Shown here one piece after another: positions 27,855 to 27,886 of a stretch of 64,000 nucleotides of DNA; positions within the stretch are counted from its first letter, which is position 1; every line of letters starts with the position of its first letter. The stretch is from Escherichia coli (lineage in GTDB: Bacteria; Pseudomonadota; Gammaproteobacteria; Enterobacterales; Enterobacteriaceae). The DNA lies in NCBI RefSeq assembly GCF_041886205.1, contig NZ_CP169029.1. One strand, 5' to 3'. The notes under the pieces are model-generated. The model was given only the letters and a program-made list of their open reading frames with translations, did not search any database and was not told where the DNA came from. The position numbers and the translations under genes were made by a program.

Positions 27855-27886
27855 CCGCGCCATATGCAGACATGGCGCGGTTTTAT
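27855..27886 (+). terminator. intrinsic-terminator-like hairpin (CCGCGCCAT-loop-ATGGCGCGG followed by TTTTAT)
   Basis: 9-bp perfect stem and T-run on plus strand, 10 nt from the betT stop; preceded by AAAA so may act bidirectionally. Confidence 0.45.

Follow-up and report, generated by a model that had tools for sequence, protein, structure and literature searches.

The hairpin at positions 27855–27886 of the window, the whole 64,000-nucleotide stretch of Escherichia coli DNA (contig NZ_CP169029.1) that was analysed, is probably the intrinsic terminator stem-loop of the choline transporter gene betT, whose U-tract was lost in the ehaA lineage through the import of a DNA tract. In kind, it is an ordinary gene terminator of an already known sort. 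What is mildly new is that the junction of O-island 15 (OI-15) removed the betT U-tract in roughly one E. coli genome out of four. OI-15 is the ehaA island of EHEC O157:H7 (PMC8565820). The features of the locus, in order from betT downstream along its strand, are as follows.

27897–29930, minus strand: betT, choline BCCT transporter (RefSeq annotation of the 100%-identical locus L001)
27887–27896, minus strand: spacer between the betT stop codon and the A-tract, read from the sequence
27881–27886, minus strand: probable A-tract of the betT terminator, AUAAAA on the betT strand (TTTTAT on the plus strand), invariant in all sampled E. coli
27855–27880, minus strand: probable betT terminator stem-loop, betT-sense CCGCGCCAUGU-CUGC-AUAUGGCGCGG, conserved and single-copy
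27840–27854, minus strand: expected position of the U-tract, reading GAAUCAUUGACUCGC (the first OI-15/ehaA bases) in place of UUUCUCUUACCUCUU
27803–27831, plus strand: putative promoter-like site ATGACA-17-CATAAT (10/12); if it is active, an RNA of ~48 nt would start here and stop at the hairpin
27391–27854, minus strand: AT-rich ehaA upstream region (26–32% GC), the proximal end of the OI-15 tract, present in 1398 of 5426 genomes
25390–27390, minus strand: truncated ehaA, the downstream neighbour on the betT strand, in which the N-terminal 635 codons run out of frame into the last 50 nt of pdeL

The initial annotation described a 9-bp GC-rich stem followed by TTTTAT, and such an element is indeed present: the plus strand of 27855–27886 reads CCGCGCCAT-atgcagac-ATGGCGCGG-TTTTAT. 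The gene context given there was also correct, as yahB, the nearest plus-strand gene before the hairpin, ends at 25331, and both the ORF at 25390–27390 and betT lie on the minus strand. The plus-strand RNA pairs over 9 bp around a loop of 8 nt, and the energy of the bare hairpin is −16.2 kcal/mol. The betT-sense RNA forms 11 bp (7 of them G–C pairs) closed by a CUGC tetraloop, with an energy of −18.3 kcal/mol, because an A/C position of the plus strand becomes a G·U pair on the minus strand. The distance from the betT stop codon to the stem on the betT strand is 16 nt and is made up of the spacer and the A-tract.

The window was searched for perfect stems of at least 9 bp having at least 7 GC pairs and a loop of 3–8 nt. 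The stem at 27855–27880 was the only one of this quality in the 64 kb. First-order Markov simulations (n = 60) gave a mean of 0.63 such stems, with both strands counted, and a stem followed by a T4 tail appeared in none of the 60. In the terminator scan, the hairpin took the top rank within its 8-kb neighbourhood. We consider it highly improbable that the element is a chance palindrome without function. Such an origin would agree with the fact that no direct expression or 3′-end data were found for it, but it is at odds with the rarity of the stem and of its T4 tail, with its location 16 nt past a stop codon, and with its invariance across phylogroups next to a flanking spacer that is ~9% different or wholly replaced.

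The Rfam 15 covariance-model scan of 25000–30500 returned no relevant match at a permissive threshold of E ≤ 10, and in RefSeq the hairpin element is unannotated, with no RNA annotated at this place. A REP/BIME or another dispersed palindromic repeat was rejected, as the hairpin occupies a median of one place per genome across 5181 genomes and is the sole such stem in the window. A protein-binding palindrome was also considered; nothing points to it.

The segment 27391–27960 was compared with 5426 complete E. coli genomes by megablast. The part comprising the stem, TTTTAT, and the end of betT (27855–27960) was matched in 5181 of them, and the part upstream of ehaA (27391–27854) in just 1398. 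Every one of the partial matches begins at 27855 or 27857; the left base of the stem at 27855 is the exact edge of E. coli-wide conservation. The A-tract and the stem are invariant in the sampled E. coli whatever sits downstream of them, and the stem is identical in 11 sampled strains save for a G>U at the stem base in the K-12 lineage and one loop change. In the ehaA-type strain Ec1115 (NZ_CP126614.1), an IS1 has entered the left arm of the betT hairpin (L085, ~3078, between AAAACCG and GTGATGCTGCC...), by which the stem is destroyed.

Two kinds of sequence follow the stem on the betT strand. In 3692 genomes (K-12, B2, and F types), it is followed by a K-12/pdeL-type betT–pdeL spacer, and the betT-sense RNA reads AUAAAA-hairpin-UUUCUCUU. 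Seven strains of this type were sampled (K-12, AR_0014, YDC107, SMS-3-5, ST540, RMDEC465, and E1648), and their betT-sense sequence is GCAUAAAA-CCGCGCCAUGUCUGCAUAUGGCGC(G/U)G-UUUCUC(U/C)UACCUCUU. The spacer of E1648 (L086) contains an IS1. In the window and the 1398 genomes of the ehaA type, the betT-sense tail is GAAUCAUU. A metagenome scan with the A-tract and the stem gave 25 betT-linked matches, namely 14 of the K-12, 9 of the B2/F, and 2 of the ehaA type; no fourth flank type was seen among the matches, the rest of which were unrelated sequences matched by chance.

To rank the alleles and strands, we used a relative terminator index of the d'Aubenton-Carafa form, which serves for ranking only and is uncalibrated to modern energy parameters. 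The index was +11.3 for the B2/F sense strand, −15.9 for the K-12 sense strand, −43.0 for the window sense strand, and +6.7 for the window antisense strand. The pdeL-type genomes (n = 3692) carry a tail, UUUCUCUUACCUCUU, that qualifies as a U-tract; the window tail GAAUCAUUGACUCG does not qualify, as the first three positions of GAAUCAUUGACUCGC hold no U. No other minus-strand terminator-like site was found by the terminator scan between 27855 and the start of ehaA.

In L002, a B2-type locus, pairing of the A-tract with the first three U of the tail lengthens the stem to a 14-bp helix, and the minimum free energy of the 72-nt RNA is −24.1 kcal/mol. The consensus terminator scan calls nothing in L002 5200–6300, because the A/T tracts are absorbed into the stem, which leaves the counted tail short of T. 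Symmetric A-tract terminators can thus escape the rule of a consensus scan. The K-12 hairpin (L004 3514–3539; NC_000913.3 331513–331538) has a G>U at the second-last stem position of the betT strand, by which the stem is cut to 9 bp and the index is lowered to −15.9 vs +11.3. It should be noted that this index below zero counts against the betT terminator as an explanation. There are also hints that the stem has some value apart from termination, because the loss of the U-tract in 1398 genomes should be selected against if the terminator mattered much. At the betT loci of other Enterobacterales, terminator-like hairpins of unrelated sequence follow the gene in at least 33 of 79 cases, 8 of these with A-tracts.

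Canonical Rho-independent terminators with an upstream A-tract are known in E. coli (d'Aubenton-Carafa 1990; the library of Chen et al. 2013). The betT element is like them in being a GC-rich stem-loop placed a few nucleotides after a stop codon, with an A-tract on its 5′ side and a U-rich stretch on its 3′ side in most E. coli. It is unlike them in the window and in the 1398 genomes that are without the 3′ U-tract on the gene strand.

By sequence comparison, the ehaA arrangement would be a ~5-kb imported divergent tract that runs from the hairpin to approximately codon 105 of pdeL. In the intact ehaA-type locus of strain 6EVA (L001), 4643 bp stand in place of the 823-bp spacer of the pdeL-type loci, and the edge of the tract at the stem base (27854/27855) is abrupt. 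Compared with the K-12-like locus L003, L001 shows ~100% identity through yahB and the 3′ two-thirds of pdeL, and the identity goes down to 75–88% over the last ~400 nt of pdeL. All 22 of the 22 amino-acid differences between the ehaA-type and the K-12-like PdeL fall in residues 1–105. Because the divergence extends beyond the spacer into the 5′ end of pdeL, one crossover of the ~5-kb tract is placed inside this gene.

The first ~105 codons of pdeL, encoding the HTH DNA-binding domain, are present in L001 (~1490–1809) as a divergent allele (MASHDLSVFLEEFGATVNL...) and are deleted in the window. The ehaA-type pdeL is without a long upstream region of its own: it is separated from ehaA by 141 bp, and these hold the ehaA terminator. 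This intrinsic terminator, at L001 1885–1935 on the minus strand and just upstream of pdeL, reads GAGAGAGCCGAA-cgggagataa-TTCGGCTCTCT followed by GTGTCATTTTCTT.

The homology break exactly at the stem base, together with the IS1 in the left arm of the same hairpin in Ec1115, could also be expected if the hairpin were a target of recombination or insertion (by a hairpin-specific transposase or integrase, or by hairpin-stimulated illegitimate recombination) and not primarily an RNA element. We hold this to be very unlikely. The OI-15 tract consists of only ehaA and its flanks; an integrase, a transposase, direct repeats, and a further copy of the hairpin are all absent from it, and its other end fades gradually within pdeL, as homologous recombination predicts. 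The IS1 has a loose target preference and was met in one genome among thousands, and a terminator already explains the position of the hairpin, its A/U tracts, and its strand asymmetry.

With regard to the age of the two layouts, the ehaA-type spacer differs by no more than 2.6% among genomes, and the pdeL-type spacer by ~9% between K-12 and B2; the latter occurs in the phylogroups A, B2, and F. The pdeL type with the U-tract would be the older state, because its spacer has the deeper diversity and the wider distribution within E. coli, a polarity drawn from the diversity and distribution in this species only; the 80 betT loci that a scan for outgroups yielded all belong to other genera.

The ehaA upstream region and the K-12-type pdeL upstream region have two blocks in common, which stand in the same order and at spacings offset by no more than 4 nt (window 27709–27759 and 27562–27602; L003 5646–5700 and L002/L003 5496–5536). 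Otherwise, the two regions are unalignable. One of the blocks holds an identical 17-mer palindrome, GACTGAATCCATTCAGC (27712–27728), which we take to resemble a Cra box, and the second one a minus-strand promoter-like sequence TTGATT-16-TATAAT (27593–27566). Cra is an activator of pdeL (bioRxiv 10.1101/2021.10.01.462762). It is possible that ehaA inherited a regulatory core like that of pdeL. O-island 15 of O157:H7 (PMC8565820) makes up the DNA to the left of 27855, and the hairpin marks the betT-side boundary of the island. However, OI-15 is usually regarded as an insertion of a single ORF, whereas here it is part of a longer divergent recombination tract that extends into pdeL by ~105 codons, and the two collinear blocks upstream of ehaA are shared with the pdeL upstream region.

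Compared with 6EVA, the window also has a deletion of its own, 3259 bp in length, with a 3-bp overlap at the junction 25420–25422. The deletion takes the C-terminal half of ehaA, in which the translocator-coding part is expected, the ehaA intrinsic terminator, and all of pdeL except the last 50 nt. The leftover ehaA ORF has 666 codons, of which ~635 are ehaA codons followed by an out-of-frame end. The junction was found in none of the 5426 complete E. coli genomes, which would fit an origin of the window from Shigella or from an unsampled lineage. The initial annotation had proposed that the hairpin may be a relic of the gene arrangement before the deletion. The part of this proposal that stood is that the odd orientation goes back to an earlier gene order. 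The deletion itself, 2.4 kb away from the hairpin and unmatched among the genomes, is not the event concerned; the relevant rearrangement would be the exchange of the ancestral betT–pdeL spacer for the ehaA/OI-15 tract. That the hairpin was made by the deletion unique to the window has practically no probability and was rejected on two grounds: the distance of the junction and the presence of an identical hairpin with identical flanks in 6EVA and O157:H7, in which ehaA and pdeL are intact.

After the stem, the plus-strand RNA has UUUUAU, which qualifies as a U-tract with a short run (4 U), and the hairpin had therefore been read as oriented to terminate a plus-strand transcript. This reading of the TTTT run was not borne out, as all betT-carrying E. 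coli have the run, whether they also have ehaA or not. It is the A-tract of the betT terminator seen from the plus strand and was not made for a plus-strand transcript. No plus-strand transcription unit ending at the hairpin was found; there were only a promoter-like site of chance level and two ORFs running through the stem. These ATG ORFs, 27803–27952 and 27823–27975 (49 and 50 codons), cross the hairpin and enter the 3′ end of betT in antisense. Being half island and half core DNA, they are most likely spurious.

It is, nevertheless, conceivable, if improbable, that the main role of the hairpin is the termination of a plus-strand RNA, either one of ~48 nt from the site at 27803–27831 or an antisense RNA from the ehaA region, the link with betT being incidental. 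The UUUUAU after the stem with its index of +6.7 vs −43 for the sense strand, the 10/12 sigma-70-like site 24 nt upstream of the stem, and the identity of this promoter-like stretch in O157:H7 and the window are consistent with such a role. However, the TTTT run and the stem occur in all 5181 betT-carrying genomes, including 3692 without the upstream sequence; as they are kept without it, they were not built for an OI-15 transcript. Promoter-like sites in this AT-rich DNA are found at chance frequency (8 vs 8.6 expected in shuffles), the extra pairing of the hairpin belongs to the betT-sense strand, and an RNA of this kind had no Rfam match and no RefSeq entry and went unmentioned in those EHEC small-gene supplements that were searched. 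The hairpin may also stop antisense or small plus-strand transcripts.

The suggestion that the hairpin, being preceded by an AAAA run, acts bidirectionally for betT held in part. The hairpin belongs to betT and the AAAA run matters, but the sense U-tract is gone, the tail now being GAAUCAUUGACUCG. A bidirectional terminator in the window was rejected, as only the A-tract side survives and there is no U-tail on both strands; it also fails the convergence of genes, since betT and ehaA (pdeL elsewhere) are on the same strand. Bidirectional terminators reportedly consist of a hairpin between an A-tract and a U-tract and typically lie between convergent genes. The majority allele of the betT terminator is like them in the symmetric arrangement of A-tract, stem, and U-tract, and its antisense reading has a usable U4 tail. 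It is unlike them in having co-directional flanking genes, and the layout in the window is asymmetric.

Published data on 3′ ends were searched for the hairpin. In the K-12 Term-seq tables (Adams 2021, PMC7815308), neither strand has a 3′ end listed at 3315xx; the expression of betT is poor in the media used. A bicyclomycin-sensitive (Rho) termination region is reported in K-12 at 331703 (+) (PMC7815308, supplementary file 2), which places it ~165 nt past the hairpin along the betT strand. The signal may mean that the intact betT terminator is leaky, or it may come from pdeL; it is ambiguous because the 800-nt windows of that study also span the pdeL promoter. The TERMITe supplements contain nothing for the hairpin, and betT and ehaA are unmentioned in the Sakai/EHEC small-gene supplements.

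Taken as the betT terminator, the hairpin would have reached its present form as follows. In the majority layout betT–spacer–pdeL, probably the older one, the transcript would end with AUAAAA, an 11-bp GC-rich stem with a CUGC loop, and UUUCUCUU, which makes a canonical terminator, and the upstream A-tract would give it a symmetric look. The ehaA lineage would then have imported ~5 kb with ehaA, the AT-rich DNA upstream of it, and the 5′ part of pdeL up to about codon 105, presumably by one crossover inside pdeL and another junction exactly at the distal base of the stem. With the junction at this base, the U-tract would have been exchanged for GAAUCAUUGACUCG and the stem and the A-tract retained. 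The surviving A-tract, when read on the opposite strand, is TTTTAT, which would give rise to the plus-oriented look.

In E. coli, a strong stem that lacks a U-tract close behind it works poorly as an intrinsic terminator, and transcription of betT is, therefore, expected to continue past the stem into the ehaA upstream region. We infer that the sense termination of betT is weak here and that run-on into this AT-rich DNA is probable. The run-on transcripts might be stopped by Rho, helped by H-NS on the AT-rich DNA, or they might continue. Once Rho has ended a transcript, 3′ exonucleases typically shorten it as far as the first stable stem (Dar and Sorek 2018, PMC6061677). The 3′ end of the betT mRNA should accordingly still be set and protected by the hairpin. 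The locus is like the trimmed 3′ stem-loops of that study (PMC6061677) in having a strong stem without a U-tract just past the coding sequence, followed by untranslated AT-rich RNA, and in the K-12 Rho region located ~165 nt beyond the stem. It is unlike them in that the betT stem would have arisen within an intrinsic terminator and in that trimming here is predicted. On the plus strand, the stem with UUUUAU would be a moderate terminator, which may halt spurious antisense RNA before it reaches betT.

The importance of these results is small beyond annotation hygiene. A terminator that seems to point the wrong way may be an ordinary one seen from its A-tract side, the U-tract having disappeared at a recombination junction, and orientation calls made from a single genome can thus mislead. 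Meanwhile, the two layouts offer a natural in vivo comparison of the U-tract at the same stem, with 3692 genomes that have it and 1398 that do not. A further consequence is doubtful: in ~26% of E. coli, including EHEC O157:H7, induced betT would read into ehaA and so couple the adhesin to osmotic stress, and the stem with the A-tract would serve as a one-way antisense shield for betT. The trigger of the proposed read-through into the ehaA regulatory region and gene would be the induction of betT by osmotic conditions or choline. The one-way terminator, if true, would shield betT from antisense RNA coming out of an AT-rich region of the H-NS type. If the read-through is true, it would be a simple route by which an acquired island could put its adhesin gene ehaA under the regulation of the upstream neighbour.
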